DNA of 64,000 nucleotides from Candidatus Moranbacteria bacterium GW2011_GWC2_40_12 (GTDB lineage Bacteria > Patescibacteriota > Minisyncoccia > Moranbacterales > UBA11712), in assembly GCA_000995965.1 (NCBI GenBank), contig LBYD01000001.1:279040-343039 (forward strand), read 5' to 3'. Positions within the stretch are counted from its first letter, which is position 1. Each line of letters starts with the position of its first letter. This document shows, piece by piece, positions 7,918-24,610 of this stretch. The translations under genes were made by a program, and so were the position numbers. A model generated the notes under the pieces. The model was given only the letters and a program-made list of their open reading frames with translations, was not told the origin of the DNA and made no database searches.

Positions 7918-7950
7918 TTTATTGCAAGGAGCCTAAGCTTCTTATGAATC

Positions 7951-9222: not shown

Positions 9223-9247
9223 TGCCAGTTTTTGTTTTTAAATTATT

Positions 9248-9340
9248 TGCGAATTACGAATACGCTTCGCTCTACAAATATGCCAATTACGAATATTTTT
9301 TACATTTGTATATTCGTAAAAGATTCATAATCCGTAAAAG
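9248..9340. repeat. about 95-bp TACGAAT/ATTCGTA-rich imperfect palindromic dispersed element (full copy 1)
   Basis: about 93% identical to 61838-61934; partial copies at 18820, 41622, 47796, 51075; fills the whole intergenic space directly 5' of a minus-strand start codon. Confidence 0.7.
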
Positions 9341-10453
9341 TTATCTTAATTTGTATCCGTCCGCTTTTTTTTCAAAGACTTTCCTGTTGGCCAGATTGAC
9401 GGCGATAGTCGCCCTTTTTACTTTTCTTTTCCCAAGAACTTCCTCATAAAGTTTTTCTCTCTTCAGAAAACCGCCAGCCGAATTCAAAAGATTGACGATG
9501 ACATCCTTCACTGTTCCCTCTTCGAAGCCCCACTCGCGCAAGGCATAGGTTCCCCGGCCAACCAGGACGAATCTTTTGTCGCGGATCAGTTCATTGTGAA
9601 CAGTTTGAGGATGGACTTTTTTTCCGCTCAACTTCAATTCTTCAATCAGTTGGCTTATTTCGCGGAAATGGAGCGGTTTTCCTTTCTTCATCAGAACCAG
9701 TGTGGCTTTTTCGCGCACTCCTCGCGGCCGGATGAGCGGCCACCGGGCTTTTCCCCAGTCTCCGAAAACATTTTGTCCGAACTTTTTGGAAATTTCGAGA
9801 AAACTCAGTATATGCTCCGGCTTCATTTCGGAATATTTTTGGGAAAACTCGCTATGATCCAGTTTCTTGAGAACTTCCTCGAGGGTCAATATTTTTTTCC
9901 CCGTGTCGAAGATCATCTCCAATTCATCAACTGCTGCCTTGAAATATTTTTTGTCGAAATCTGGGTGAATCCATGTATCTTCCATTTCCCGATTTGATCT
10001 CGCTTTTTTGATCCCGGTCATGAGAAAAATTACTTCAAGCAATTTGGCTTCCTGCAGTGAAAGTTTTTCATTTCCCGTGTATCTCAAGAAAACGCCGCTC
10101 GCCAGTTTTTCTGCTTTGATGATTCCCCCGTTTTCTTTGATTATATCGTTTACGCAAGCTGAAAGGTTATCGAGGTTACTGACTTTTTCCGTTTTTTTCA
10201 GGGCCTTCACGGCATCTCCTTCGATTTGCCTCACTCTTTCCCTTGTGATATTCAGATTTTTTCCGATAGCCTCGAGTGTTTTTGGCTGTCCGTTTCCAAT
10301 CCCGAAACGGCTGGAAAGAACCAGTTTCTGCTTGGCGCTAAGACTGTCCAAAAGGCTTTCAACGACAGACTTCAAATCTGCTGTTTTTACTGGGATTTTT
10401 TGGGATAAATCCGAATTTTCCCTTGAATTTACCATATTTCTTGAAGCAAACAT
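9341..10453 (-). CDS. sigma-70 region-4 domain protein with C-terminal HARE-HTH domain (atypical sigma-like regulator)
   Basis: LVLSSRFGIG...TLEAIGKNLNITRERVRQIEGDAVKALKK (region 4.2) near N-terminus; C-terminus LHFREISQLIEE...RFVLVGRGTYALREWG (HARE-HTH); annotated ATG at 10501 overlaps the -10 box so start moved to 10453. Confidence 0.6.
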   Translation of the reverse strand: MFASRNMVNSRENSDLSQKIPVKTADLKSVVESLLDSLSAKQKLVLSSRFGIGNGQPKTLEAIGKNLNITRERVRQIEGDAVKALKKTEKVSNLDNLSACVNDIIKENGGIIKAEKLASGVFLRYTGNEKLSLQEAKLLEVIFLMTGIKKARSNREMEDTWIHPDFDKKYFKAAVDELEMIFDTGKKILTLEEVLKKLDHSEFSQKYSEMKPEHILSFLEISKKFGQNVFGDWGKARWPLIRPRGVREKATLVLMKKGKPLHFREISQLIEELKLSGKKVHPQTVHNELIRDKRFVLVGRGTYALREWGFEEGTVKDVIVNLLNSAGGFLKREKLYEEVLGKRKVKRATIAVNLANRKVFEKKADGYKLR

Positions 10454-10500
10454 TATTGTTTTGCTATTGATTATTATAGCGCGATTAATCTCGGTATGCA

Positions 10501-10529
10501 ATCATAACACAGGGTTGTCAGATTGTCAA
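10501..10529 (-). promoter_or_regulatory. sigma-70-type promoter TTGACA-N17-TATGAT
   Basis: minus-strand cTTGACAatctgacaaccctgtgtTATGATtgc upstream of 9341-10453. Confidence 0.55.
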
Positions 10530-10607
10530 GAAACTGGTAAAAATTCAGATTTTTTAACGAACTTTTTACAAAATATATCGCCCGCGGCGCGATGCCAGAA
10601 CATTTTT

Positions 10608-11537
10608 TTAATTTTGCTTATTGGCCTGAAATTTCCACCAATCCACCATCAAAGCCGACGCAACAAATATTGAAGAATAAGTGCCGAAAGTGATTCCGAT
10701 GAGCAGCGCTAACGTGAAGTTTTTTATGGATTCTCCGCCAAAAATAAGAATGGCCAGAAGAGTGATGACAACGGTAAGAGAGGTGTTGATTGACCTGGCC
10801 ATCGTTTCATTGAGGCTTTGATTGACCGTTTCATCAAATGTTTCTCTCGCGCTTCCCCGCAAAAGATTTTCCCGCGTCCGGTCATAGACAACAATCGTGT
10901 CATGAACCGAAAAACCGAGGATTGTGAGAAGGGCCGCGATGAATGTGGTGTCAATCTCGATGTTCCAATAATGGCCGAGGATAGAAAAAATTCCGACCGT
11001 GATGAGAACATCATGCACCAGCGCCGCCACCGCTCCGACTCCGTATTTCCACGACTCAACCGGGCGCGACACTTTCCGAAAGGCGTAAGAGATATACAGC
11101 GCTATGCCGATCACCGCCACAAGTAGCGCCCAAATGGCTTTCTTTTTGAGCTCCGAAGAAATCGAGGGACCGATATAATCAAGGCGGGTATTTTGAACAT
11201 CCGGAAATTTTTCTTTGAGCTTTCCAAGAACCGCTTTGTTTTTTTCGTCGTCAGAATTTCCATAACGAATCAAAAAAGCTCCATTTTGCGCAGGAGTCAC
11301 AACCGCGTCTTCTATGCCAATCTCCTTTAGAGAAGCTTTTATCTCGTCATTTTCTATGTCTAATTTCTCATTTCTTATCTCCATCAGTGTTCCTCCAGTG
11401 AAATCCAATCCGTACCGGAGTCCCCACGCCGAAAGACTAATAATCGAGGAGACTATCAAAGCACCGGATAAAATATAGAAATATTTGCGCTGGCCGATGA
11501 TGTTATACATAAAAAAGTATAATTTATTGCAAATCAA
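10608..11537 (-). CDS. secF: protein-export membrane protein SecF
   Basis: SecF periplasmic and TM signature (GITFGTYSSIFVAS); 4-nt overlap with secD stop. Confidence 0.9.
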   Translation of the reverse strand: MICNKLYFFMYNIIGQRKYFYILSGALIVSSIISLSAWGLRYGLDFTGGTLMEIRNEKLDIENDEIKASLKEIGIEDAVVTPAQNGAFLIRYGNSDDEKNKAVLGKLKEKFPDVQNTRLDYIGPSISSELKKKAIWALLVAVIGIALYISYAFRKVSRPVESWKYGVGAVAALVHDVLITVGIFSILGHYWNIEIDTTFIAALLTILGFSVHDTIVVYDRTRENLLRGSARETFDETVNQSLNETMARSINTSLTVVITLLAILIFGGESIKNFTLALLIGITFGTYSSIFVASALMVDWWKFQANKQN

Positions 11538-13240
11538 AACTCTTCCTTTTCGAGAATCTTTTTATCAGCTATTATCCAGCTCTTTCGCTCTTCCGCCCAA
11601 TCTCCGACAACCGCCGTGAGAATCGTCCGCACTAAAATGATTGCCGTGAACATGGAAACCAACACTCCCAAAAGAAGTGTCACCGCAAAGCCTTTCACGA
11701 ATCCCGTTCCGAACCAAATCAAAATAAGAGAAGTAATGATCGAAGAAATATTGCTGTCCCGAATGCTCGGCCAGGCCCGGTGAAATCCTTCGTCAATTGC
11801 CCCTTTGAGGCTCCGGCCTTTTCGAATTTCTTCTTTGGTCCGCTCAAATATCAAAATATTCGCGTCCACCGCCATTCCGACGGAAAGAATAAACCCGGCA
11901 ATTCCGGCAAGAGTCAGAGTGATTGACCACGGCGTTCCGGTGGACATCTTGAAAAGCGCGACCATGATGGAGGTATATAAGACAAGAGCCGCTGAAGCGA
12001 CAAGGCCGAGGAACCGGTAATAGAAAATCATGAAAATCATGACGACAACGATGCCGATTGCCCCAGCTTTGAGGCTTTTTTCAAGCGAGACTTTCCCAAG
12101 CGAGGCTTCGACGCTTTGCTGGCCAATGAGCGTGATTGGCAGCGGGAGAGCGCCTTCATTGAGCCTCTGAGCCAGTTTTTTGCATTCTTCAAGTGTGAAG
12201 TCTCCGGTGATGACCGCTTTTCCGTCGCTGATTTCAGACTGCACCGTTGGCGCGCTGATGACTTGCCCGTCAAGAAATATGGCGATTTGCTTTCCGATAT
12301 TTTCTTTTGTCAGCTGGGCGAATATTTTTGCGCCTTCGCTGTCAAATTCGATTCCCACTTCAGGCTTTCCGGTTTGCGACATAAACTGGACGTCCGACCT
12401 TTTCAGATTTTTCCCGGTAAGTCCCGTGTCAACAAATATCGGCTGCTGCTGAACAGGAGGCGGAGTTTTTATGGCTAAGAGAATATGCTGGGCCTGAACC
12501 TCTTTTGCTTCACCATCGCCTTTCACTTCAAGCAATTTTATTATATGATATCCGAATTGAGATTCAACAATTTGCGGATAAATTTGCCCCGGCGGGAGGT
12601 CGCTGTCAAACAAAACCTTGTCAAATTCCGGAACAAAAGTTCCTTTTTTCACAAAACCCAAGTCACCGCCCTGGTCTTTTGATCCCGGATCTTCTGAATT
12701 TTGTTTTGCGAGCTCCGCAAAATCAGCGCCGCCTTTTGTTTGCGCGAGCAAATCTTCGGCTTTTTTCTTTTGATCCTCGTTATATTTTTTGTCTTCGGCG
12801 GAGATTTCTTGAGGAGGCTGCTCGGGGGGCGCTTCCATTTTCTTGAACTCCAAGAATGGAGTCTCTTTGATCATTTCTTTCGCTTTTTCGATGTCTTTCA
12901 CGCCAGCGAGCTCGACAATAAGCCTTTGTTCCCCGCCTGATTTTGAAGTTTCGATCAAGGGCTCCGCCACTCCAAACGCATTCACCCGCCTCTCAATGAC
13001 ATCCTGAAGGCCAGTGAGAGCATCCGGTATTTTCTCCGAATCCACTGCGCTCGTGTCGACTTTATAGATAAGGTGAATCCCGCCTTGAAGGTCAAGGCCG
13101 AGATTGATTTTCATCTTCGCCAAAAAATTTCCAAGCCAGGCCGGTTTCGAAATCGGTTTCGGGGAAGCAATTAGCGCCGCCACGGCAAAAAGCAACGCGA
13201 CAAGAAAAAATTTTACCCAGATTTTTCGTCGGATGGACAT
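11534..13240 (-). CDS. secD: protein-export membrane protein SecD carrying an inserted PpiC/parvulin-type PPIase domain
   Basis: SecD N-terminus LGLDLQGGIHL; aa about 150-255 GADFAELAKQ...GGDLGFVKKG...FGYHIIKLLEV (parvulin signature); SecD P1/TM region resumes after. Confidence 0.9.
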   Translation of the reverse strand: MSIRRKIWVKFFLVALLFAVAALIASPKPISKPAWLGNFLAKMKINLGLDLQGGIHLIYKVDTSAVDSEKIPDALTGLQDVIERRVNAFGVAEPLIETSKSGGEQRLIVELAGVKDIEKAKEMIKETPFLEFKKMEAPPEQPPQEISAEDKKYNEDQKKKAEDLLAQTKGGADFAELAKQNSEDPGSKDQGGDLGFVKKGTFVPEFDKVLFDSDLPPGQIYPQIVESQFGYHIIKLLEVKGDGEAKEVQAQHILLAIKTPPPVQQQPIFVDTGLTGKNLKRSDVQFMSQTGKPEVGIEFDSEGAKIFAQLTKENIGKQIAIFLDGQVISAPTVQSEISDGKAVITGDFTLEECKKLAQRLNEGALPLPITLIGQQSVEASLGKVSLEKSLKAGAIGIVVVMIFMIFYYRFLGLVASAALVLYTSIMVALFKMSTGTPWSITLTLAGIAGFILSVGMAVDANILIFERTKEEIRKGRSLKGAIDEGFHRAWPSIRDSNISSIITSLILIWFGTGFVKGFAVTLLLGVLVSMFTAIILVRTILTAVVGDWAEERKSWIIADKKILEKEEF

Positions 13241-13276
13241 ATCTAATTCTGCGGCCGAACCGCTTTATTTGACTTC

Positions 13277-13285
13277 ATTATAGCA
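13277..13285 (-). promoter_or_regulatory. extended -10 element TGcTATAAT upstream of secD
   Basis: minus-strand gTGcTATAATgaag about 40 nt upstream of secD ATG. Confidence 0.3.
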
Positions 13286-13307
13286 CGGATGGAAGAAATA
13301 ATAAAGT

Positions 13308-13556
13308 TCATCCGTATTTCATTTTCAACTTTGCCAAAATCAGTGAGCAAAGAAGCGGACTAACGTTCATATAGACGATATAGTTGTCTGTCTTCAAGAG
13401 ACCATAAGAAATAAGGCATACAGACTGGAGAAATAAAATCAACAAAAAATAACCCGACAGATCTTCAGTTTGTTTCGTCGTCCAGCTTTTGTAAACCTGC
13501 GGAACCAGCCGAATAGTATTCAAAACTCCTGCCGCAATTCCAAAAAACTCAATCAT
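13308..13556 (-). CDS. PQ-loop / SemiSWEET-family small membrane transporter
   Basis: 82 aa, three predicted TM helices, PQ motif (RLVPQVYKSWTTK). Confidence 0.65.
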   Translation of the reverse strand: MIEFFGIAAGVLNTIRLVPQVYKSWTTKQTEDLSGYFLLILFLQSVCLISYGLLKTDNYIVYMNVSPLLCSLILAKLKMKYG

Positions 13557-13575
13557 CTTTAGTTGAAAATCAAAA

Positions 13576-13818
13576 TCAAGGATTTGACACTTCTTTTCTT
13601 CTCATATACTCCTCCACCTCTTCCCAGCGCTGAACCAGATCTTCTCGCAAAGCAATATTATCCTCATTATCATCCAATTCGCCCCACTCAATTTTTTCCG
13701 CGAGCAAATCATCGACGAGTTCCTCAAATGCGGCTTCGTCTGTCACCAGCTCTTCCTTGGCCTTTTTTTTGAGTTCAAGCAGAAGATTTTCAGGCGATGG
13801 TTCAATCACATTTTCCAC
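13576..13818 (-). CDS. hypothetical small acidic protein
   Basis: 80-aa D/E-rich ORF tightly packed between the NUDIX and PQ-loop genes. Confidence 0.4.
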   Translation of the reverse strand: MENVIEPSPENLLLELKKKAKEELVTDEAAFEELVDDLLAEKIEWGELDDNEDNIALREDLVQRWEEVEEYMRRKEVSNP

Positions 13819-13827
13819 AATATGTTT

Positions 13828-14313
13828 TTATTTCTTAAGATAATTTAGCAAAAATCTATTTGCTTCCTTGAAAGCATTGCGTGAATTCTTGTATGTAATA
13901 CGCTTGAGGGATTCTTTGTATTCCAGCCAGGAAAAGTTGACGTGTTCAAATGACAATCTCACCTCTTTTTCTTCTGTTTTTGCTAAATAGGCTGTAACTA
14001 TTTTAAAAATGTTTATTCCTCTATTTGACGCCTTTCGTTCTTTTTTCTCATTACCTTTTGCGCGGTAAAAATATTTATACCAAGTATAAAATCCCGGAAT
14101 TATTTCAAATTTTGTAATCCCTGTTTCTTCTTTGACTTCACGGCGCAATGCATCTTCCCATGTTTCTCCTTTTTCAATATGTCCTTTGGGGAAATCCCAA
14201 TGACCCTGAAAGCCATCGCTTTTCGGATGCTGGATTAGTAAATACAATATTTTATTTTTTTCCCTCCGGAACACCACTGCTCCGACTGATTTTTCAAATG
14301 GCATACTCTCCAC
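13828..14313 (-). CDS. NUDIX hydrolase
   Basis: Nudix box GHIEKGETWEDALRREVKEETGI. Confidence 0.85.
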   Translation of the reverse strand: MESMPFEKSVGAVVFRREKNKILYLLIQHPKSDGFQGHWDFPKGHIEKGETWEDALRREVKEETGITKFEIIPGFYTWYKYFYRAKGNEKKERKASNRGINIFKIVTAYLAKTEEKEVRLSFEHVNFSWLEYKESLKRITYKNSRNAFKEANRFLLNYLKK

Positions 14314-14334
14314 TTGGAAACTTAGTTTCCAAGT
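14312..14334. repeat. PE-A palindrome copy at the 3' flank of RAYT-1
   Basis: ACTTGGAAACTTAGTTTCCAAGT, ends 3 nt before the RAYT-1 stop. Confidence 0.85.
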
Positions 14335-14336
14335 CG

Positions 14337-14996
14337 TTATTCGATTATTAATTTTTCCATCTCCTTTTTGTCTTTTATAGAAACCAGCGATTCTTCCGCA
14401 AATTTTCGATAATCTTCCCCATTTTTGAAATCATCCAAAATCACGCGTTTTTCTCCGCAAAACGTCTTTTCTGAAAAATTATCCGTATATTCCCTCCAAC
14501 TTGAAATCGACTTGGAAACTAAGTTTCCAAGTGAATGGACACGGTCATTGAGATTCACGTAGGCGCTTAAGTGCAACAGATAGCTGTTTGTTTTTATATG
14601 GACTGCTTTGAATGTTCCCTGGAAAAGAGAACCAGAGCGCTCGTGCCTCTTGTTGAAATATTTTGTATAACCTATTCCGAGACGGTGCATGAATTTCTCA
14701 ATGCCCTGCTCGGCTGTCTGTTTGAGAATGAAATGATAGTGGTTAGGATTCAGGCAAAAACACACGAAACCGACCAATTTCTTTTTGGATTTGTTCTTTT
14801 CTTTTCTGTCGCGAAAAAAATTTTCATATATGCTTCCGATCGGATCAAGCGTATTGAATTCATCCATACTCTGAAGAAATCTCCGCATATCCAATTGATC
14901 ACTGAAAATTTCCCGCTTGTCCACTCCGCGATTGAAAATGTGGTAATATTCGCCTTCAGCCAATTGTATTTTTCTCATAGCTGGATTATAGCACAA
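14337..14996 (-). CDS. IS200/IS605-family Y1 (HuH) transposase, REP-associated tyrosine transposase-like (RAYT-1)
   Basis: EYYHIFNRG..., HuH motif NHYHFIL, conserved Y in YLLHLSAYVNLN, SGSLFQGTFK; flanked by PE-A palindromes on both sides and contains one in-frame. Confidence 0.8.
   Translation of the reverse strand: MCYNPAMRKIQLAEGEYYHIFNRGVDKREIFSDQLDMRRFLQSMDEFNTLDPIGSIYENFFRDRKEKNKSKKKLVGFVCFCLNPNHYHFILKQTAEQGIEKFMHRLGIGYTKYFNKRHERSGSLFQGTFKAVHIKTNSYLLHLSAYVNLNDRVHSLGNLVSKSISSWREYTDNFSEKTFCGEKRVILDDFKNGEDYRKFAEESLVSIKDKKEMEKLIIE
14510..14532. repeat. PE-A palindrome copy inside RAYT-1 coding sequence (in-frame, encodes LGNLVSKS)
   Basis: ACTTGGAAACTAAGTTTCCAAGT. Confidence 0.85.
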
Positions 14997-15004
14997 AACA
15001 ATCC

Positions 15005-15027
15005 ACTTGGAAACTAAGTTTCCAAGT
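15005..15027. repeat. PE-A palindrome copy at the 5' flank of RAYT-1
   Basis: ACTTGGAAACTAAGTTTCCAAGT, 9 nt upstream of the RAYT-1 start. Confidence 0.85.
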
Positions 15028-15120
15028 CAAATAAGATAAAAAAAACAGGCCCGTCGAGCTCTCTTCCCCCTCCGGAGAAAAGAATCACTCAACGAGCCTT
15101 GATGGTACACAGGTAATGCG

Positions 15121-15840
15121 TTACTTAAGCAGTTTTTTTTCGCCGGAGTCGAAGGCCTCGCCCACACCGATGCTACCCACCGCGCTGACGGCGCCAACGG
15201 CAACCGCCATTTCCGGAACTGTCATGCCCAGGACCGGTGCCACAATACCGGTTGACGCGGCAACGGGCGGAATCATGGTGCCCGCCATTTCTGCCATTTG
15301 GGCAATGGGGCCGCGCTGTTTGGCCCGTTCTCCCAGCCAGTTAAGCTTGGTGGGATCGTAGTATTCCGTTTTACCAGTAAAACCGGTCAGGAATTCGGTG
15401 ATCACACCCACGGGATGATAGAGCAGCTGACTCTTGGCCGTGTTGACTGCCCGACACGCCTGGGATATGGGAGTCTCGAACTTTGATTTTGTGACATAAT
15501 TAAACCCTTCTCCCAGGGCCATGAGGCCGGTGCCAACAGTCATAAAAGGTGCGAGGATGAGGGTTTTGATCGGACTGGGCAACCCGCGATCTGCACTCGC
15601 CACTGGAATCGCCGCAGACTGGGCCTCAGCCCGCCGCTCCAGATCCTGCCGTCTTAGGGAGTACCTCAAATCGATCACGGTTTTTTCCGCCGCGGCCCGC
15701 TGGTCAGCCGCCAGACTCTTCGCCCTGGCCGCCGCCATCTTGGCGTCCAGCTCGGGGAACATCCCCGCTCCGACCGTCCCGGCGCACAGAAAGACCATTG
15801 CCATCATCATTACCATCATAAACCCCAAGTACCGTTTCAT
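15121..15840 (-). CDS. hypothetical secreted/membrane protein within the GC-rich island
   Basis: SD GGGAGGAAG before ATG at 15840; N-terminal signal-like MKRYLGFMMVMMMAMVFLCAG; about 60% GC. Confidence 0.5.
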   Translation of the reverse strand: MKRYLGFMMVMMMAMVFLCAGTVGAGMFPELDAKMAAARAKSLAADQRAAAEKTVIDLRYSLRRQDLERRAEAQSAAIPVASADRGLPSPIKTLILAPFMTVGTGLMALGEGFNYVTKSKFETPISQACRAVNTAKSQLLYHPVGVITEFLTGFTGKTEYYDPTKLNWLGERAKQRGPIAQMAEMAGTMIPPVAASTGIVAPVLGMTVPEMAVAVGAVSAVGSIGVGEAFDSGEKKLLK

Positions 15841-16109
15841 AGCCACTTCCTCCCTTTTTGCCTTTCGGCAGAAAATTCCCTCTCGATGAGAGGGGCCAAA
15901 CAATTTTCAAATAATGCTGCTATGGATAAAAATTAACATCTGCAAAAATCCTGTCAATGGGGAAAATTTATCAAAAAACAAAATTGACACTCTGTAAAAA
16001 ATGTTTACTTAAAAGATTTTTCTTATATTCCGATGGACAAAAAGGATATCCTAAGCGTAGAATAGAATAAAGGAAATTTTTCTCAATAAAATCTAAGGAG
16101 GTGCGCTCA

Positions 16110-16973
16110 ATGAAGCGCGAAAGCGAACTTTTTTTACTGGCAATTATTTTGGTGACAATTGCCTTTTCGGCAGGCTGCGTCGGACCCATCCATGAGATGG
16201 AAAAAAGCGGATTAGTCCAGCTTCAAACCGCAGCTCCTATCTCTGCTCGGCCGGGAGGAAAGTATGTCTACGTTAACTGCCGCGACGGGACGGGCAATAA
16301 TCTCGACATCCAGAATCGAGTCATTTCCTTGATTCGCTCGCGGGGATATATTTCCGTCAGCGACCCGAAGTTGGCTGACTACCAGCTCACTGGCGGTCCT
16401 AATTCCATCAGTTATCAGCAAGACCGTTCTCGGACGACCGGCGGGGGACAAGCTATTGGAGCGCTTATGCTGGGTGCTTTGGCCGGAGGACTTGTTGGGG
16501 GATTTACGGGAAATGCCGGCCTTGCAACCGCTGCTGCCATCGGCGGAGCAGCCGCGGGAGCAGCTATTGGAGGAACTGCGGAAGCCCACGCTGCGCCGGG
16601 AATTGTCATTGCTTCGGTAAACATCCGGATTGATGAACGGATCAATTTTTTGAGCGAAAGACAAGCCAAACTGCCCCAACCTATCCAAAAAGTCCGGAAA
16701 GTGAAAAAAACTCTGAAGTCCGGAAAAAAAGTATGGGTGACAGAGGACATCACTGAAACCGAAGACGCTGAAACTCCGGTGAAATCCACCGTTGCTGCGG
16801 CTCAATCCGGCGCTGGTGCTACCACAGTAGTCACTGATCGCCGGGTGGCTGATTTTGTTCCTCATCAGGCGACTTTCGAGGTCAAGCATGTAGTGGAATC
16901 TTCCACGCCGGCTGACCAAATAAAAAATCTGCTGGCGGAAAAAATCGCCGCTGCCATTGCCAACATTCTCTAG
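16110..16973 (+). CDS. traT: TraT-like outer-membrane lipoprotein (complement-resistance / surface-exclusion family)
   Basis: lipobox LVTIAFSAGC; Gly/Ala-rich central segment; C-terminus ...AEKIAAAIANIL closely resembles TraT C-terminus (...LAKSIANIL); SD AAGGAGG 7 nt upstream; about 58% GC. Confidence 0.75.
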   Translation: MKRESELFLLAIILVTIAFSAGCVGPIHEMEKSGLVQLQTAAPISARPGGKYVYVNCRDGTGNNLDIQNRVISLIRSRGYISVSDPKLADYQLTGGPNSISYQQDRSRTTGGGQAIGALMLGALAGGLVGGFTGNAGLATAAAIGGAAAGAAIGGTAEAHAAPGIVIASVNIRIDERINFLSERQAKLPQPIQKVRKVKKTLKSGKKVWVTEDITETEDAETPVKSTVAAAQSGAGATTVVTDRRVADFVPHQATFEVKHVVESSTPADQIKNLLAEKIAAAIANIL

Positions 16974-17004
16974 GCCGAATCTGACGACCAAGAGACAGGA
17001 ACGG

Positions 17005-17035
17005 GGCCCTCACCGGCTCCGTGTTTTTTTTGCAT
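17005..17035 (+). terminator. intrinsic terminator after traT-like gene
   Basis: ACGGGGCCCTCACCGGCTCCGTG followed by TTTTTTTT. Confidence 0.4.
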
Positions 17036-17080
17036 AAGTTCTATTTTCGCCAAATGTCAATTGATATTGCTGCAGCAAAA

Positions 17081-18817
17081 TTATTTGACATTTCGTTTTC
17101 TGTTTTCCAGAAAAGCAACAATTTGATCCGCCGTTAAACAATTCACTATATCCCCTTTCTTTGCCCAGCCCCTGCGCGCCTGTGCGATGCCGAGATCAAG
17201 ATTATGCAATTGATTTTTGCTGTGCGAATCAGTGCCAAGAGAAAGCTTCACGCCGTGTTCGATCGCCCGCCGGATATTCAGGTCGTTCAAATCCAGTCTG
17301 TCCGGATAGGAATTTATTTCGAGAATGGTTTTTGTCCGAGCCGCCGCGCGGAAAATTTCTTCCATATCAAGTTCGTATCCCGATCTTTTGTGGATCACCC
17401 GCCCCGTCGGGTGGGAAATGATATCCACGCGCGGATTTTCCATCGCCCGAATCAATCTTTTTGTCATCTCGGAGCGAGACATTTTGAAATTCGAATGAAT
17501 CGATCCCAAGACAATATCAAACTTCAAGAGGTATTTGTCTTCGAGCGCGATTGTCCCGTCGGGATTTATATCAGCCTCACAGCCCTTAAGTATCCTAAAA
17601 TTCCTAATTTTCCTATTTAAACCATCGATTTCCCTCCACTGTCGTTCGATTGTTTTCACGTCCATTGCCCCTGCTATTTTGAGATGCCCCACATGGTCGG
17701 TGATGGCAATATATTTTCTTCCCAATTTTTTGGCCGCTTCAGCCATTTCTTCAACTCCCTGCGCCCCGTCAGAATAGGTCGTGTGCATTTGCAGATCGCA
17801 TATTACATCTTCGTATTCAACAATTTTCGGGAGCTTATGCGCGAGCGCCAGCTCGATCTCTCCCCGGTTTTCGCGCATTTCAGGACTCATCCAGTCGAGG
17901 CCCATTTTTTTATAAATTTCCTCTTCCGTCCGGCCGGCAATTTGCCGATTATTTTTATCAAAGAGTCCGTATTCATTGAGTTTCCAACCCTTCTTGATGG
18001 CGATTTTTCGAAGCTCAATGTTGTGATCCTTGCTGCCGGTGAAATACTGGAGCGCCGCGCCAAAAGATTTTTCCGGAACGACCCGGAGATCCGCGTCAAT
18101 CCCGATGTCAAGACGCACCATCGATTTCGTTTCGCCCCGCGCGATTATTTTCTCCACATTCGGCAAAGAAACGAAATATTCCATGATTGCACGGGAATCC
18201 CTGGCACTGGCAAGAATATCAATATCCCCGATCGTTTCTCTCCGCCGCCGGAACGACCCGCAGGCCAAAATTTTTTGGACGCCAGGCGCGGAAGCGAGAT
18301 CTTTTTCCATTTTCGAAACGATAGGGGAGACAAAGCCAAGCAAAAAACGGCCCCGATGCTCGCGGGAAAGCGCGATCGAGCGCAAAATGTTCTTTTCTGT
18401 TTTTTGCCCGAAACGGGGGAGTCGGCGCACTTTCCCCGCCCGCGCCGCTTTTTCAAGGTCGCTGATATTCTTCACTCCGAGATTTTTGTATAAAGCGAGG
18501 AGCATTTTCGGCCCGACGCCTCCAACCGAGGAGAAGCTGTCAAGATCAATAGGGGCATCTTTTTTGAGCTTTTCGAAATTTTTAATCTTCCCTGTCTTCA
18601 CATATTCTTCAATATGCTCGGCCATTCCTTTTCCGATCCCCTCGATTTCCATGAGCCCTTTCACGCCCGATTTTTTGTATATATCCTCGAGGTCGTCTTC
18701 CATTGATTCAATAAGCCGCGCCGCCTTTTCATAGGCTCTCGGCCGGAATCGGTCGTCTTTCATCGTATATAGTTCCGCCATTTGAGAGAAAACTTTCGCG
18801 ATTTTGAGATTGAGCAT
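17081..18817 (-). CDS. polX: DNA polymerase X family protein with C-terminal PHP domain
   Basis: HhH motifs, Pol-beta-like nucleotidyltransferase core, PHP motif DLQMHTTYSDG. Confidence 0.9.
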   Translation of the reverse strand: MLNLKIAKVFSQMAELYTMKDDRFRPRAYEKAARLIESMEDDLEDIYKKSGVKGLMEIEGIGKGMAEHIEEYVKTGKIKNFEKLKKDAPIDLDSFSSVGGVGPKMLLALYKNLGVKNISDLEKAARAGKVRRLPRFGQKTEKNILRSIALSREHRGRFLLGFVSPIVSKMEKDLASAPGVQKILACGSFRRRRETIGDIDILASARDSRAIMEYFVSLPNVEKIIARGETKSMVRLDIGIDADLRVVPEKSFGAALQYFTGSKDHNIELRKIAIKKGWKLNEYGLFDKNNRQIAGRTEEEIYKKMGLDWMSPEMRENRGEIELALAHKLPKIVEYEDVICDLQMHTTYSDGAQGVEEMAEAAKKLGRKYIAITDHVGHLKIAGAMDVKTIERQWREIDGLNRKIRNFRILKGCEADINPDGTIALEDKYLLKFDIVLGSIHSNFKMSRSEMTKRLIRAMENPRVDIISHPTGRVIHKRSGYELDMEEIFRAAARTKTILEINSYPDRLDLNDLNIRRAIEHGVKLSLGTDSHSKNQLHNLDLGIAQARRGWAKKGDIVNCLTADQIVAFLENRKRNVK

Positions 18818-18819
18818 AA

Positions 18820-18885
18820 TATTTCTTTACGAATTTATTGTATTCGTATATTCGTAATAGATTCGTAATTCGTAAAATAATCATA
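18820..18885. repeat. partial copy of the TACGAAT-rich element, directly 5' of polX
   Basis: ctttacgaatttattgtattcgtatattcgtaatagattcgtaattcgtaaaa. Confidence 0.6.
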
Positions 18886-18952
18886 CCACTATTTTCAAAA
18901 ATAAAAAAAGGGCAGACCTCCATTTCTGCCCGGTTAAACCTTGTTGAAAGGT

Positions 18953-19282
18953 TCATAGATTCCTGCCTGCAGGACAGTATTTATTGCGCTTTTTAAGACG
19001 CGGAGAACTGGCCGTAGCACCGCATAGCTTGCAGAGATTATCCCGCTGTTGATAATTATGCCGCAGATTTCCCTGCCCGCTGAAATACAGCATGGACAAG
19101 AGAGAGCCGCGTGTTGGGTAAAGACGTTTGATCTTGCATTGCTGCCGGCGCTGACATTTATCACAGGAAGCAATTTCACCTTCCTTATTGAAATCGCAAC
19201 CGACTAGAGAAAATCCACACCTTGCCAACGCGCAAAAGCCCAACGTTAGCGGTCTTCCCAAAATATTTCTTCTTTTTGCCAT
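18953..19282 (-). CDS. small cysteine-rich protein A (109 aa)
   Basis: SD AAGGAGG 7 nt before ATG; C-x4-C-x6-C-x10-C-x2-C pattern resembling the ORF at 39991-40242. Confidence 0.5.
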   Translation of the reverse strand: MAKRRNILGRPLTLGFCALARCGFSLVGCDFNKEGEIASCDKCQRRQQCKIKRLYPTRGSLLSMLYFSGQGNLRHNYQQRDNLCKLCGATASSPRLKKRNKYCPAGRNL

Positions 19283-19362
19283 CGACTGACCTCCTTAGTC
19301 AAATGGATTTTTGAATAGATATATTAAAAATATCCTGACAAGTGACAAGAGCCCGGCTCTTG

Positions 19363-20418
19363 TCAAAACTTTTTCAACTCCTTCATAAACTCTTTGAGCA
19401 GATTTTTCTCCTCGACTTTTCTCAAAATTTTTCCCTTTTTGCAAATGAGCCCGACGCCTTCGCCGCCGATGACCGCGAGATCCGCTTCGCGCGCTTCGCC
19501 CGGTCCGTTCACCACGCACCCCATCACGGCCACGTGGATATTTTTATCCACGCCTTCGACCATTTTTTCCACTTTTTCCGCCAAACTTATCAAATCAATT
19601 TTTGTCCGCCCGCAAGTCGGGCAGCTTGTCACTGTGATTCCGCGTTTTCGAAGCCCCAATGATCGCAAAATTTCCCATGATACCTTCACTTCCTCGACTG
19701 GATCGGCCGTCAAAGATACGCGGATTGTATCACCAATGCCTTCGTAGAGCAAGTGGCCGATCCCAATAGACGACATTATCGTACCACGGAAAATGGTTCC
19801 CGCTTCGGTGATTCCGAGATGCAAAGGATAATCCACTTTTCGGCTCAAAAATTTATAGCTCTCGACCGTCCGCTCAATATCTGACGCTTTGAGTGAGATT
19901 ACAATATCCCTAAATTTTAGTTTTTCTAATATTTTTATATGCCGCATCGCCGATTCAACCATCCCTTCAGCCGTCACTTTATTTTTGTGCTTCGCGAGAA
20001 TATCTTTTTCAAGCGAACCCGCGTTCACCCCGATCCGGATGGGAATTTTTTTCTTCCGGCAGGCCGCGACGACAAGACCCACTTTTTCAACCGAACCAAT
20101 ATTCCCGGGATTAATCCGCAATTTGTCCACTCCCTGCTTCACGGCTTCCAGCGCCAACTCGTGCGAAAAATGAATGTCCGCCACGAGCGGAATGTTTATC
20201 CTTTTCTTTATTTTTCCCAATACTTTCGCCGCCGCCATATCCGGCACAGCCACGCGAATGATTTCACACCCCGCTTTTTCTAGTTTTTTTATCTGCGCGA
20301 TTGTCCCGGCGACATCCTCTGTTTTTGTGTTCGCCATCGACTGCACCGCCACCGGCGCGTCGCCACCGATGAAAATTTTCCCGACTTTTATTTTTTTGGT
20401 TTTTCGGCGTTTGATCAT
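19363..20418 (-). CDS. ispG: 4-hydroxy-3-methylbut-2-en-1-yl diphosphate synthase IspG (GcpE)
   Basis: KIFIGGDAPVAVQSM..., C-terminal Cys cluster; start placed at MIKRRK (TATAAT just upstream) rather than the 105-aa upstream extension in the ORF track. Confidence 0.9.
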   Translation of the reverse strand: MIKRRKTKKIKVGKIFIGGDAPVAVQSMANTKTEDVAGTIAQIKKLEKAGCEIIRVAVPDMAAAKVLGKIKKRINIPLVADIHFSHELALEAVKQGVDKLRINPGNIGSVEKVGLVVAACRKKKIPIRIGVNAGSLEKDILAKHKNKVTAEGMVESAMRHIKILEKLKFRDIVISLKASDIERTVESYKFLSRKVDYPLHLGITEAGTIFRGTIMSSIGIGHLLYEGIGDTIRVSLTADPVEEVKVSWEILRSLGLRKRGITVTSCPTCGRTKIDLISLAEKVEKMVEGVDKNIHVAVMGCVVNGPGEAREADLAVIGGEGVGLICKKGKILRKVEEKNLLKEFMKELKKF

Positions 20419-20488
20419 ACACTTAATATTATACAAATCCGGAAAAAAGAAAAGGGCAGCCCTCCATGGCCGCCCCGGGGAATCTAAA

Positions 20489-20692
20489 TTATTTTTCTCT
20501 AACCTTGCTTCTTGCGGGCTGACGTATCTTTGCCACATAGCCCTGGCTGACGCCGTCTTTGGGATTCTTGGAGTTCTCCTTTTTTTCACACCTCTTAGTC
20601 CTATCACAGTTATTACACTCCGTATACCCTTTCCTGCGATAGCAATATTCAGTTCCCGTAAAAATACAACGAAACCATAATGATTCTGCCAT
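20489..20692 (-). CDS. small cysteine-rich protein B (68 aa), downstream member of tandem pair
   Basis: SD GGAGGG 4 nt before ATG; CIFTGTEYC...CNNCDRTKRC. Confidence 0.5.
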   Translation of the reverse strand: MAESLWFRCIFTGTEYCYRRKGYTECNNCDRTKRCEKKENSKNPKDGVSQGYVAKIRQPARSKVREK

Positions 20693-20702
20693 GTTTCCCT
20701 CC

Positions 20703-20885
20703 TCAAAATAATGGTGGCTGTCTCTTTTTGCACTTGTCACAGATAGTTTTTCTTGTCCGATCGTTTTCCTCCGCGCCGCATGTCTTTGGATCAAGATCGC
20801 ATTCGGCGCATTCACTGAGTCCGGACTCGTCTTCACAGGAGAGATTCCTCCCGCAAACACAACATTTCTCAGTCAGAGTTTTCAA
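20703..20885 (-). CDS. small cysteine-rich protein C (60 aa, TTG start), upstream member of tandem pair
   Basis: SD AAGGAGG 6 nt before TTG; four CxxC-like pairs (CCVCG, CEDESGLSEC, CAEC, CDKC). Confidence 0.5.
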   Translation of the reverse strand: MKTLTEKCCVCGRNLSCEDESGLSECAECDLDPKTCGAEENDRTRKTICDKCKKRQPPLF

Positions 20886-21054
20886 AGTTCCTCCTTATAA
20901 TGTAATCATAAACATTTGGATATTTACGATTAATTTTGTATTTTCCTGCCAATTTCATATCATATTTTCACCCTAAAAGTCAAACTACGACATATTTTTT
21001 AATGAATATATCAACAATAATTATGCTATAGCATAATTATTGTCTATGGACATT

Positions 21055-23850
21055 TTAGGATTGAGATTTATTTTTACTTTCCGCTTTTCTTGCTTCCTCG
21101 AATATGAATACGGCCAGAGTCGCTCCGATCACCACCAGCCAGTCCCAAAAATCAATTGGCGACATATGAAGATATTTTTGAAAAAATGGAATATACATAA
21201 ACGCCAGAAGCATTCCCACTGAAATGAAAATTGAACCGATAAGCCACCTGTTCTTGAAAAATCCGATTTTGAAAACAGAGAGTTTTTCGCTTCTCGCTTG
21301 CATCAAATTGGCCATCTGGGTCATCGAGAGCACCGCATATGTCACCGCCGTCGATTTGATATAGAGCGCTGAACTGAAATCTATTTTTTCTCCGAAATTC
21401 CATCCGCCTCTTTTCATAGACCAGAGAAAGGCTACAATAGCTCCTGTCGCCATGATGAACCCGATATAAAAGAGCCGCCCGAAACCAAAACTCCCAATTA
21501 GCCGCTCGTTGGGATCAAATGTTTTTCTTTTCGTATTTCCCGCCTGCCTGCCCGTTGGCAAGGTTTCGGCCGGCTCGACGCCAAGCGCCAGCGAAGGAAA
21601 TACGTCTGTTCCAAGATCGATCGCAAGAATTTGCACTGCCGTGATGGGAGCCGGAATCATAAACAGGGTTCCGAAAATGACCGTCAAAAATTCGCTGGCG
21701 TTCGAAGAAAGGACATAATAGATGAATTTGCGAATATTTTGATAAATTGTCCTCCCTTCTTTGATTCCGGCAACAATTGAAGAGAAATTATCGTCAAGGA
21801 GAATCATGTCCGAGGCTTCCTTGGAAACATCTGTGCCGATTATTCCCATTGCCACTCCGACATCCGCCTTCTTGAGAGCTGGCGCGTCATTCACTCCGTC
21901 TCCTGTCATCGCTATAACCGCTCCCGATTTTTTGAGAACCGATGCTATGCGCAGTTTTTGCTCGGGAGTGATGCGGGCAAAAACCGAAGCGCCATTTTTA
22001 ATTCGCTTAACAATTTCATTGTCTGGCAAAGTATTCAATATCTTGCCATTAATCACAAAATTATCCGAATTATCAATTGCGAATTTCGAATTACTGCGCA
22101 AAAGATTCACCTTTTGCGCTATCGCTCTCGCTGTCACCTCATAGTCACCTGTTATCATAATCACTTTTATTCCCAATTGCTGGCATTCTTCAATGGCTTT
22201 GGCAACATCGGCTCTCGGCGGGTCAATCATCGCCATCATTCCGACCCAAATCAAATTTTTTTCGGATTCTTTTTTGCAATCGTTTTTATTATAGTTTTCG
22301 AGTGGGCAATAGGCGAAAGCCAAGACCCGAAGCGCTTGTGAAGACATCCGGTCATAAATTTCTTTTGTCTTCTTCTTTTCTTCATCTGAAAAGGGGACTA
22401 TCCCCTCCCTGGTCAATTTTTTGGGGGAGAGGCTCAAGAGAACATCCGGCGAACCCTTAATATACGAAAATATTCCATCCTTACTTCCTTGATTTCCATT
22501 GTTTTTTTCATAAATAACGCTCATGCGCATCCGTTCCGATTCGAACGGATTTTCGTCAACTTTTCGCTCCCCTGCCCCGAAATATTTCTCATCCGGATTA
22601 TATTTCCTCGCCGCGACAATCAGCGCCCCCTCTGTCGGATCGCCAATAATTTTATAATCTTCGCCTTCTTTCTCCAGGCTCGCGTCATTGCAAAGCGCGC
22701 CGATTTTGAGAATTAGGCCCAGGTTCTGAATCTTTTTCGGATCGATCGGCTTGCCATTCACAAGAAATTTTCCAGCCGGCCTGTATCCCTCCCCGCTCAC
22801 CTCGATTTCTTTCTCATCCAAAACAATTTTGGTCACCATCAGCTCATTTTTGGTGATTGTTCCCGTTTTGTCCGTGCAAATGATATTTATCGATCCGAGT
22901 GTTTCGACCGCAATCAATTTTTTTACTAGCACATTTTCCTTCATGAGCCTTCGCATCCCAAGTGAAAGAGCGACTGACATGGCCGCCGGCAGTCCTTCCG
23001 GAACCACCGAGACCGCAACCGCAAGCGCGAAAAGGAAATTCTGATACCAGGAAAGATGCTGAAATCCTCCGGCAACAAGTACCAGAACCGCGATCACCAT
23101 CGCCAAAATCGAAATATCCCTCCCAAGGGTGCGCATTTTTTTCTGAAGCGGGGTCAATTCATCCGCCACTTCTGTTGCGAGCTCGGCGATTTTTCCGAGC
23201 TCTGTTTTTATCCCCGTTGCAACGACAACCGCTTTTGCCTCGCCCTTCGTCACCTGTTCTCCAGTAAAAACCATATTTTCAATGTCCGCTATTGGAAGAC
23301 TTTCTTCAGCGATCAGTTTCGCTTCCTTTCGCTCCGGTTTTGACTCTCCCGTGAAAACAAAACTGTTCGTGTGGAGATTGTAGCTTTCGAGAATATGTCC
23401 GTCCGCCGGGACATTGTCGCCTGAAGCCATAAAAATTATGTCTCCCGGCACAATTTCACTGGCATCAATTTCTTTTTTTCGGCCATTGCGGATAACCGTC
23501 GCTTTGTCAGATGCCAGTTTTTGGATCCGATCCATAATCCGCTCTGCTTTCCATTCCTGAGAAAAACCGATTATCGAGTTAATAAGGATAATGATCAGAA
23601 TGATTGTCACGTCCTTCATTTCTCCAAACGCCAAAGCCAAAACAGCCGCTATCAGCAAGATCCATACCAATGCGTCATTGAATTGGTGCAAAACCAGCTT
23701 TGCCCATCGCCATCTCTCACGTTTTTCAATTTTGTTCGAACCGTATTCTCTCAATCGATTCCCGGCTTCCTCATCCGAAAGCCCGCCCAAATTCGTCCCA
23801 AACTTCCCCAAAACCTCTTCCGCGCTCAAATTGTATATTTGTTTTTCCAT
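21055..23850 (-). CDS. cation-transporting P-type ATPase (type II, Ca2+/Mg2+-like)
   Basis: ICTDKTGTITKN phosphorylation motif, MTGDGVNDAPALKKADVGVAMG, TGES, 10 TM. Confidence 0.9.
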   Translation of the reverse strand: MEKQIYNLSAEEVLGKFGTNLGGLSDEEAGNRLREYGSNKIEKRERWRWAKLVLHQFNDALVWILLIAAVLALAFGEMKDVTIILIIILINSIIGFSQEWKAERIMDRIQKLASDKATVIRNGRKKEIDASEIVPGDIIFMASGDNVPADGHILESYNLHTNSFVFTGESKPERKEAKLIAEESLPIADIENMVFTGEQVTKGEAKAVVVATGIKTELGKIAELATEVADELTPLQKKMRTLGRDISILAMVIAVLVLVAGGFQHLSWYQNFLFALAVAVSVVPEGLPAAMSVALSLGMRRLMKENVLVKKLIAVETLGSINIICTDKTGTITKNELMVTKIVLDEKEIEVSGEGYRPAGKFLVNGKPIDPKKIQNLGLILKIGALCNDASLEKEGEDYKIIGDPTEGALIVAARKYNPDEKYFGAGERKVDENPFESERMRMSVIYEKNNGNQGSKDGIFSYIKGSPDVLLSLSPKKLTREGIVPFSDEEKKKTKEIYDRMSSQALRVLAFAYCPLENYNKNDCKKESEKNLIWVGMMAMIDPPRADVAKAIEECQQLGIKVIMITGDYEVTARAIAQKVNLLRSNSKFAIDNSDNFVINGKILNTLPDNEIVKRIKNGASVFARITPEQKLRIASVLKKSGAVIAMTGDGVNDAPALKKADVGVAMGIIGTDVSKEASDMILLDDNFSSIVAGIKEGRTIYQNIRKFIYYVLSSNASEFLTVIFGTLFMIPAPITAVQILAIDLGTDVFPSLALGVEPAETLPTGRQAGNTKRKTFDPNERLIGSFGFGRLFYIGFIMATGAIVAFLWSMKRGGWNFGEKIDFSSALYIKSTAVTYAVLSMTQMANLMQARSEKLSVFKIGFFKNRWLIGSIFISVGMLLAFMYIPFFQKYLHMSPIDFWDWLVVIGATLAVFIFEEARKAESKNKSQS

Positions 23851-23857
23851 AGCCCTT

Positions 23858-23878
23858 CGTAGGTGTCGGACACCTACG
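23858..23878. repeat. PE-B: 21-nt perfect palindrome CGTAGGTGTC-G/C-GACACCTACG at 3' flank of RAYT-2
   Basis: distinct from PE-A; located between P-type ATPase start and RAYT-2 stop. Confidence 0.85.
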
Positions 23879-23880
23879 AT

Positions 23881-24528
23881 TTATTCTAGTAAATATTTCT
23901 CCCTTTCCTTTTTCTCTTTCATATACAAAGAATTTTCTTTTATAAATTCTCGATATTCATTCTTATTTTTAAATTCATTAAGAATAACACCTGTGTCACA
24001 AATCCCCCCGTTTCTTTTCCCAGTATAATCTAAAAAACTGGAATATGGCCAGTCAAAATCGTCACCGTATCCATGAATAAAATAGTTTTTGTTAACATAG
24101 GCTGATAAATAAAGAAGATGTGCGTTTGTCCTTATACGGATCGATTTAAATTTCCCCTGAAACAATACTCCGGATCTTTTGTAATGATAGTTGAAATAAT
24201 TTGTATAACCGCCTCCGAGCCTTTTCATATATTCAGAAATTCCATGTTCTGTTGATTGTTTTAAGATCAAGTGAAAATGATTCGGATTAAGACAATAACA
24301 TATGATTTCAACTAATTTTTCCATTCGTAGGTGTCCGACACCTACGTCTTGCTTTCTTTCTTGCTGACTGTGCCTATACAAGCTATGGATAGGATCAATT
24401 TGGTTAAATTCTTTCATGGACGTTAAAAATCGATTATAGTCTCTGTTGGATAAAAAAACTTTCCGTTTTTCAACGCCACGGTTATAAATGTGGTAATATT
24501 CATTGACATCTAGGGGTTGTTTTCTCAT
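23881..24528 (-). CDS. IS200/IS605-family Y1 transposase, RAYT-like (RAYT-2), paralog of 14337-14996
   Basis: EYYHIYNRG, NHFHLIL (HuH), YLLYLSAYVNKN, SGVLFQGKFK; own palindrome PE-B on both flanks and in-frame (VGVGHLR). Confidence 0.8.
   Translation of the reverse strand: MRKQPLDVNEYYHIYNRGVEKRKVFLSNRDYNRFLTSMKEFNQIDPIHSLYRHSQQERKQDVGVGHLRMEKLVEIICYCLNPNHFHLILKQSTEHGISEYMKRLGGGYTNYFNYHYKRSGVLFQGKFKSIRIRTNAHLLYLSAYVNKNYFIHGYGDDFDWPYSSFLDYTGKRNGGICDTGVILNEFKNKNEYREFIKENSLYMKEKKEREKYLLE
24326..24346. repeat. PE-B palindrome copy inside RAYT-2 coding sequence (in-frame)
   Basis: CGTAGGTGTCCGACACCTACG. Confidence 0.85.
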
Positions 24529-24534
24529 AAACCT

Positions 24535-24552
24535 TAGGTGTCGAACACCTAC
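24535..24552. repeat. degenerate PE-B copy at the 5' flank of RAYT-2
   Basis: TAGGTGTCGAACACCTAC (one mismatch in loop). Confidence 0.7.
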
Positions 24553-24580
24553 AAAATCATTTTACCACAAAACCGGCCGC

Positions 24581-24610
24581 TTGACGCCCCCCCCAAAAAA
24601 AAGAGATAAT
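24581..24610 (+). promoter_or_regulatory. sigma-70-like promoter TTGACG-N18-GATAAT whose spacer is a C8A8 homopolymer tract
   Basis: gcTTGACGccccccccaaaaaaaagaGATAATgg about 35 nt upstream of the PilX-like gene. Confidence 0.4.

Follow-up and report, generated by a model that had tools for sequence, protein, structure and literature searches.

We analysed a 64-kb stretch of contig LBYD01000001.1 from Candidatus Moranbacteria bacterium GW2011_GWC2_40_12 (64,000 nt, hereafter the window), in which a GC-rich region beside a transposase gene carries two divergent genes, one for a TraT-family lipoprotein and one, called ORF B here, for a secreted or membrane protein. We consider it likely that both genes have long resided in a variable slot on the chromosome of an ultra-small bacterium of the Moranbacteria, a lineage of the Candidate Phyla Radiation (CPR), and that they reflect neither a recent plasmid import nor an assembly error. 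TraT is an old resident of Moranbacteria-type genomes, and the gap that holds it, between the genes for PolX and a NUDIX hydrolase, is a hypervariable accessory slot whose occupants are present in some genomes and absent from others. The genes and the borders of the slot are as follows.

16110..16973, plus strand: gene for a TraT-family lipoprotein, 287 amino acids, stop included.
15121..15840, minus strand: ORF B, gene for a secreted or membrane protein rich in Ala, Gly and Met, 239 amino acids, divergent from the TraT gene.
15841..16109, no strand: AT-rich divergent intergenic spacer between the two GC-rich genes, 0.34-0.40 GC.
13828..14313, minus strand: NUDIX hydrolase gene, conserved left border of the slot (synteny).
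17081..18817, minus strand: PolX/PHP DNA polymerase gene, conserved right border of the slot (Pfam, synteny).

Profile and fold comparisons identify the plus-strand product as a genuine TraT-family lipoprotein of a long-hairpin subfamily. Its match to the Pfam family TraT (PF05818) reached 53 bits, above the gathering score of 31, with E=4.9e-14 over amino acids 52-206 (profile positions 20-160 of 214). A profile of its clade aligned with F-plasmid TraT from the lipobox through the second helix (hhalign, 96.8% probability), which places the lipobox Cys of F TraT opposite Cys23 of the window protein. The initial annotation had pointed to a likeness between the two C-termini, and this is borne out by an end-to-end alignment of ...IAAAIANIL with ...LAKSIANIL; the exact IANIL is kept in the closest relatives only, the others ending in IANVL, ANSI, AGVL or AAPF. 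BLASTP, which the same annotation had proposed for both open reading frames, gave in a pairwise comparison no significant match of the window protein to F TraT (E=0.12); the two proteins are 16-22% identical. TraT entries in the PDB were likewise not reached by phmmer when the window protein was the query, and came up with the F TraT query only. Profile and fold methods were therefore needed to show the homology. The F TraT query was checked against annotated traT genes on thousands of plasmids and against the PDB TraT entries; its residues 9-243 were 100% identical to both.

The AlphaFold2 (AF2) model, calculated from a 12-sequence alignment, has a predicted local distance difference test score (pLDDT) of 69.7. 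The model contains a core built of strand-helix-strand elements, two long Gly/Ala helices, more strands and, at the C-terminus, a helix, and its top three PDB matches in Foldseek were the three TraT cryo-EM structures (E=2.5e-15 to 3.7e-14). In its predicted protomer architecture the protein agrees with TraT, an LptE-like core being combined with two transmembrane alpha-helices, a beta-hairpin and a helix at the C-terminus. The parts of the protein map to the gene as follows.

16110..16178, plus strand: signal peptide and lipobox, MKRESELFLLAIILVTIAFSAG followed by Cys23 at 16176-16178 (PROSITE-type rule passed).
16443..16592, plus strand: two Gly/Ala-rich helices, amino acids 112-133 and 136-161, equivalent to the transmembrane helical hairpin of TraT (AF2, hydropathy, alignment with F TraT).
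16644..16853, plus strand: extended beta-hairpin region, amino acids 179-248, including an insertion of ~35-45 amino acids that is not in F TraT (alignment, AF2).

The lipobox and the Gly/Ala-rich core that had been read from the sequence at the outset are both present: AFSAG before Cys23 passes the PROSITE-type rule, with Gly-Cys invariant in 12 of 12 family members, and the protein contains 14.3% A and 10.5% G. Hydropathy predicts segments at amino acids 111-134 and 136-154. In the hairpin region AF2 places strands at 197-204, 210-217, 232-235 and 241-244 with low pLDDT; within the clade this region is the best-conserved part of the protein.

The age of the gene was judged from its relatives. 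The protein closest to the window TraT, at 98% identity, comes from Candidatus Moranbacteria bacterium GW2011_GWF2_44_10 and is annotated as hypothetical. The window is 99.9% identical to contig LCHJ01000015 (L001) of that bacterium, which because of this near-identity gives no independent evidence; a MAFFT alignment of 8110-24973 with that contig was identical over 16.8 kb save for one indel.

16545..16562, plus strand: 18-bp in-frame indel (GAAAGA) in transmembrane helix 2 of TraT (MAFFT).

The long form at this site is carried by all other homologues, and the indel may be a strain polymorphism or an assembly collapse in the Gly/Ala repeat. Independent loci were obtained from JGI (L002/L025, contigs of 320 kb and 429 kb), ENA (L003) and metagenome-assembled genomes (MAGs) at NCBI (L004/L008 and L005), the assemblies being JGI 3300056844, ENA ERZ23491060, GCA_975321755 and GCA_964543275. 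Their flanks are collinear with the window at 66-79% nucleotide identity, and each has a TraT orthologue (52-61% amino-acid identity) convergent with PolX. Relative to the window, TraT and PolX are 61.5% and 80.1% identical in L002, 58.9% and 77.7% in L005, 55.4% and 66.3% in L003, and 51.6% and 66.1% in L004. That TraT identity falls with PolX identity fits co-descent, with TraT evolving roughly two-fold faster.

The L004/L008 contig, CAZIWW010000024.1, is labelled as an uncultured Bdellovibrionales bacterium. A binning or taxonomy error is probable here, because the PolX proteins of this contig and L003 share 99.5% identity and the locus (TraT, PolX, P-type ATPase, SecA) is collinear with the Moranbacteria loci.

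More widely, 1.84 billion representative sequences were searched exhaustively with a profile, which yielded 196 TraT-family matches at E<1e-3 but only four at E<1e-30, with further full-length long TraTs at E=1e-40 to 1e-18. Word-indexed homologue searches returned 11-14 matches, probably limited by low-complexity words, and a GTDB scan one locus. One of the long TraTs is GenBank HRZ95796.1, which already bears the name complement resistance protein TraT [Candidatus Moranbacteria bacterium] and lies at a different chromosomal site amid aminoacyl-tRNA synthetase genes. The next-nearest classical TraT (26% identity) sits in an integrase/relaxase context in a genome of 60% GC.

The slot itself was surveyed in 80 metagenomic loci gathered via PolX and screened with tblastn, hidden Markov models and blastp. 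In distant relatives (PolX ~50% identical) NUDIX follows PolX at 0-130 bp, and this adjacency is likely the ancestral state. Close relatives (PolX 76-88% identical) differ in what the gap contains, from the genes listed here down to next to nothing:

window and L002/L025: TraT, ORF B and RAYT.
L005: TraT alone.
L003: TraT and an ATP-grasp gene; L004: the same two and ORF B.
L006/L078, L014 and L035: a 137-amino-acid Gly-zipper lipoprotein and an ORF B-like gene.
L016 and L027: a small Gly-zipper lipoprotein only.
L020, L026, L033 and L034: an ORF B-like gene, with or without RAYT or an ATP-grasp gene.
L032 and L036: an ATP-grasp gene only.
L017 and L030: other small secreted proteins or lipoproteins.

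Such changing cargo fits a rapid turnover of surface proteins. ORF B is a frequent but not obligatory neighbour of the TraT gene.

Small lipoproteins of 126-146 amino acids with a Gly-zipper hairpin stand at the position of TraT, convergent with PolX, in L006 (7334-7747), L014, L035, L016 and L027. The 137-amino-acid lipoprotein of L006 aligned with the helical hairpin of TraT (hhalign 96%, 43% identity over 54 residues), a match whose weight is limited by low complexity; these proteins may be TraT remnants or alternative cassettes. The ATP-grasp gene encodes a GARS_A-domain protein of 498-506 amino acids and occurs in L003 (6229-7743), L004 (1140-2654), L032, L034 and L036.

We also compared the TraT genes of L003 (8001-8861) and L004 (2912-3769). 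The two loci have PolX proteins that are 99.5% identical and TraT proteins that are 92% identical, and 20 of the 23 differences fall in amino acids 185-228, within the insertion typical of the subfamily. Recombination in a patch, diversifying selection and consensus error in the MAGs are possible causes of the cluster.

Lateral movement among Moranbacteria, for example by homologous recombination via the PolX and NUDIX/SecD flanks, would offer another account of the patchy distribution of TraT, as repeated transfer within the clade in place of vertical descent with loss. The slot differs in content between genomes whose PolX proteins are 76-88% identical, the clustered differences between L003 and L004 look recombination-like, and the more distant Moranbacteria TraT is found at another chromosomal site. 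TraT identity nevertheless ranks as do PolX and SecD in the four comparable genomes, and no integrase, tRNA or direct repeats bound the TraT-ORF B pair. We regard this account as unlikely, and long residence in a slot with changing content remains our preferred reading.

The initial annotation described an island of about 58-60% GC on a background of about 38%. A scan of the window in 300-nt windows (mean GC 0.443, standard deviation 0.056, outlier cut-off mean + 2.5 standard deviations) found only four regions above the cut-off, 15051-15900 and 16301-16625 among them, and the region does contain the highest GC of the window (peak 0.633 at 15501; 0.55-0.63 over 15051-15900 and 16200-16900). 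It is, however, not a single island on a 38% background: it consists of two GC-rich blocks, each matching one gene and parted by a spacer of 0.34-0.40 GC at ~15900-16200, and the background is 0.44. The lower figure fits only the adjacent RAYT and NUDIX genes, which are low-GC outliers themselves (raw GC 0.38 for RAYT-1 and 0.36 for NUDIX). Sharp GC steps at ~15040 and ~16970 fall exactly at gene boundaries, ribosome-binding site and terminator.

For each gene, the expected GC was calculated from its own amino-acid sequence under the synonymous codon usage of the window. The TraT gene has 0.527 GC against 0.534 expected (residual -0.007). At third codon positions its GC (GC3) of 0.493 all but equals the mean of the window, 0.494, with a GC3 residual of -0.034 that lies within 1 standard deviation, and its GC excess sits wholly in codon positions 1 and 2. 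ORF B has 0.587 GC against 0.544 expected, so that ~70% of its excess over background is driven by amino acids. Gly, Ala and Pro together make up 28.6% of TraT, 29.7% of ORF B and 18.3% of the other window proteins. Thus, the high GC is mostly a by-product of Gly/Ala/Pro-rich proteins (GGN, GCN and CCN codons), which account for all of the TraT excess and ~70% of that of ORF B, and it carries no foreign nucleotide signature. In the relatives, GC3 of TraT is 0.632 in L002 (local host 0.62-0.64) and 0.530 in L005 (host 0.52), and ~0.05-0.06 above the host's own value in L003 and L004. Nearly all occupants of the slot are GC-rich against their own locus (0.51-0.60 vs ~0.46); therefore, it is the type of protein made from this site that gives rise to the local peak in GC.

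The true compositional outliers of the window are low-GC genes, namely NUDIX, both RAYT copies, a 23S-rRNA-IVS-protein gene and a small methyltransferase gene (13828-14313, 14337-14996, 23881-24528, 45259-45657 and 58832-59407). Their GC3 residuals are -0.13 to -0.165 in four and -0.03 in RAYT-1.

These data bear directly on the proposal that traT was recently transferred from a proteobacterial conjugative plasmid, possibly mobilised together with RAYT. In its favour, TraT is known best as an IncF plasmid protein, and more than 5000 plasmid records contain it; GC reaches its window maximum in this region, which has a Y1 transposase as a neighbour; and the site is variable in presence and absence. 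The window protein, however, shares little sequence with F TraT (the 16-22% identity given above), its close homologues are all found in this lineage and in this slot, the gene agrees with the host in GC3 and codon usage and diverges in step with PolX, and there are no tra genes in the 64 kb. Nor is the gene coupled to the transposase: L003 and L005 have TraT but no RAYT, and L020 has RAYT but no TraT. The TraT gene does not look like a recent foreign island, as its GC3 matches the host, diverged relatives carry it and the borders have neither integrase nor direct repeats, although ORF B has a GC3 residual of about 2 standard deviations and the slot is variable. A recent plasmid origin is therefore very improbable. 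What survives of the acquisition idea is the accessory, presence/absence-variable nature of the site, and an older gain remains likely; its ultimate source in a diderm is plausible, as the family is spread widely over Gram-negatives (PMC11733297).

A further proposal would be that the protein is a generic glycine-zipper (SlyB-like) lipoprotein whose match to TraT is driven by low-complexity Gly/Ala sequence. SlyB/glycine-zipper lipoproteins (PF13441/PF05433; PDB 7ojf) do share with TraT a lipobox, a Gly-zipper helical hairpin and ring formation, and SlyB-type small proteins occupy the slot of TraT in sister genomes. SlyB lacks the TraT core and hairpin, and the likeness in sequence and structure is confined to the helices. 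The window protein gave neither a match to profile PF13441 or PF05433 nor a fold limited to a Gly-zipper hairpin, and we hold this assignment to be highly unlikely.

Finally, the idea of an assembly or binning chimera, in which DNA of some GC-rich organism became wrongly joined to a CPR contig of low GC, and for which the sharp GC steps and the lack of independence of the near-identical GenBank contig might be cited, can be given practically no credence, as the same gene stands at the same position in independent assemblies from other samples and pipelines (including the 429-kb contig), with TraT GC3 at or near that of its own host in each and with GC steps that match gene boundaries, ribosome-binding site and terminator.

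Several points weigh against the interpretation of TraT as a long-standing resident with a TraT-like role. TraT was found in one of the 16 informative PolX loci of close relatives and is thus dispensable, and its patchiness could reflect lateral exchange instead of loss. ORF B has a GC3 residual of +0.111 (~2 standard deviations), the largest of the window and unexplained by amino acids; the surplus recurs in the orthologues of L002, L006 and the non-independent L001, but not in L004. The confidence of the AF2 model is only moderate, with the hairpin and insertion poorly modelled. The function, oligomeric state, lipidation and membrane location of TraT are all read from sequence, models and analogy, and with regard to lipidation, neither lgt nor lspA is present in the 64-kb window.

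With these reservations, a mode of action can be proposed. TraT has been described as a decameric lipoprotein that spans the outer membrane with transmembrane alpha-helices, two per subunit, and its mechanism is likely steric and not partner-specific (PMC12658005). Patescibacteria are described as monoderm (PMC11665869). In Moranbacteria, the two divergent genes in the slot between the core genes NUDIX and PolX would be transcribed independently and encode envelope proteins. TraT would be exported by Sec and lipid-modified at Cys23, and its two-helix hairpin would insert into the cytoplasmic membrane, the sole membrane of a monoderm, with both ends outside. It may form a TraT-like ring, a decamer by analogy, with its cup toward the cell surface, and would then reach into the zone of the wall or S-layer. 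If the steric model for F TraT carries over, such rings could act as an abundant physical shield or occluder against incoming pili, phage and other contact-dependent agents. In E. coli, TraT is a highly abundant protein. Slot turnover and the clustering of the L003/L004 differences in the exposed insertion would fit arms races of surface proteins. An outer-membrane localisation is probably not realised, because the host lineage is described as monoderm, and TraT would not serve as a conjugation component here, because no tra operon is present.

Like IncF TraT, a lipoprotein of surface exclusion and complement resistance (PF05818; PDB 9fs5, 9fsm, 9e2v), the predicted Moranbacteria protein has a lipobox Cys, an LptE-like alpha/beta core, two consecutive Gly/Ala-rich membrane-spanning helices, a protruding beta-hairpin and a C-terminal amphipathic helix ending in ...IANIL, and both genes appear monocistronic with strong translation signals. 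The Moranbacteria TraT differs from it in its low identity, in the insertion that lengthens the hairpin, in being chromosomal and outside a tra operon, and in its monoderm CPR host (PMC11665869), in which an outer-membrane location, an OmpA/TraN context and serum resistance would be inapplicable. Chromosomal TraTs with no assigned function exist (PMC11733297), in Acidithiobacillus, Fusobacterium, Campylobacter, Nitrosomonas and Vibrio. As in Moranbacteria, these stand alone among housekeeping genes, with variable hairpin length and a function apparently unrelated to conjugation. Their hosts, in contrast, are all diderms, whereas the Moranbacteria clade appears as a separate long-hairpin subfamily in a hypervariable slot. 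LptE/PelC/CsgG-type ring lipoproteins have neither the helical hairpin nor the beta-hairpin and serve outer-membrane export machines, which a monoderm host would lack.

A published survey found TraT in Gram-negative phyla only and called surface exclusion Gram-negative-specific (PMC11733297). Our literature search found no report linking TraT to Patescibacteria and none on Lgt/LspA in Patescibacteria, in each case an absence of report and not proof of absence. Unlike in that survey, we find a well-supported TraT subfamily with an enlarged hairpin that is stably encoded in a monoderm CPR lineage. It could serve as a natural system for studying the role of the TraT ring outside conjugation and the reason for its transmembrane alpha-helices, and the PolX-NUDIX gap can be marked as a site of fast turnover for surface proteins in episymbionts. 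We suggest tentatively that in an ultra-small monoderm episymbiont the TraT ring lipoprotein, working in the cytoplasmic membrane, might be an interchangeable module of a surface-shield cassette site, alongside the small Gly-zipper lipoproteins and ORF B-type proteins, and that this site turns over under pressure from phage, host or contact with other CPR cells; we see this as possible but rather doubtful. If true, the transmembrane alpha-helices of TraT would be natural in a single-membrane cell, and TraT biology would reach beyond Gram-negatives and conjugation. The main value of the analysis is corrective: a GC island beside a transposase is here most readily read as native genes whose Gly/Ala-rich products raise GC.

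Candidate expression signals of the TraT gene were seen upstream of the coding sequence (promoter and ribosome-binding site, both consensus matches) and downstream of it. The start was set at ATG 16110, seven nt after AAGGAGG (16097-16103), and GTG 16101 was rejected.

16034..16103, plus strand: promoter-like site TGGACA-18-TAGAAT (16034-16063) and putative ribosome-binding site AAGGAGG (16097-16103); consensus scan 10/12, direct reading.
17001..17032, plus strand: terminator-like hairpin with T8 between the convergent TraT and PolX genes, a candidate intrinsic terminator.

ORF B corresponds to the second GC-rich secreted open reading frame that had been noted on the opposite strand. Its most likely start is ATG 15840, with the ribosome-binding site GGGAGGA upstream, and its end is at 15121; the N-terminus is signal-peptide-like and has no lipobox. 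We found 11 homologues, all unannotated, and no match in Pfam, NCBIfam, PHROGs, PADLOC or a PDB profile search. The AF2 model is all-helical (pLDDT 49.5, too poor for a fold search), and hydrophobic segments lie at amino acids 1-31, 91-109 and 186-230. ORF B is probably a clade-restricted helical protein associated with the membrane.

The transposase gene beside the pair, also seen in the initial annotation, matched Pfam Y1_Tnp above its cutoff (30 bits vs 23); the match to NCBIfam REP_Tyr_transpos (23 bits) was below the cutoff of 80.

14337..14996, minus strand: RAYT-1, a Y1/IS200-like RAYT-type transposase gene of low GC with palindromes like repetitive extragenic palindromes (REP) on both sides (Pfam Y1_Tnp).
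15005..15027, no strand: perfect, REP-like palindrome ACTTGGAAACTAAGTTTCCAAGT on the left margin of the GC-rich region, a possible terminator of ORF B (repeat family, terminator scan).

The 23-nt perfect palindrome ACTTGGAAACT(A/T)AGTTTCCAAGT occurs in four copies (4987-5017, 14307-14337, 14505-14535 and 15000-15030). RAYT-1 is bounded exactly by two of them, and another falls within its coding sequence, where it is translated as LGNLVSKS. Palindromes and RAYT-1 together look like a REP/RAYT pair in a CPR genome.

The neighbours of the TraT gene are NUDIX, RAYT, PolX, SecDF, GcpE and a P-type ATPase, and the rest of the window is core chromosome. It encodes AlaRS, MnmA, a sigma factor, SecDF, SecA, GcpE and L10/L12, and further SMC, RNase III, NusB, TyrRS, MetK and DnaJ. 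TraT lies outside any tra or type IV secretion system (T4SS) context in the 64 kb. The only T4SS-like gene in the window, with no other T4SS genes, is at 6031-7917 and encodes a TrwB/VirD4- and HerA-like ATPase of 628 amino acids with a C-terminal treble-clef zinc finger, beside a DUF8128 protein (pair at 6031-9222). The ATPase gene lies ~8 kb from TraT, and the pair is syntenic in all relatives, with or without TraT. A functional link between TraT and the ATPase was therefore set aside, the pair being a conserved core block that is present regardless of TraT.

Two families of intergenic repeats were also observed. Repeats rich in TACGAAT/ATTCGTA motifs, whose copies are 73-93% identical, lie upstream of several genes (9243-9347, 18835-18885 and 61838-61941; also 41625-41666 and 47798-47839). 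A hairpin-like repeat of ~30 nt (…CCTAAAGTTGAACTTTAGGAAG) is present in four copies at 25212-25715, within the 560 bp of intergenic DNA that separate a PilX_N-like gene from the gene for an HtrA-like protease.

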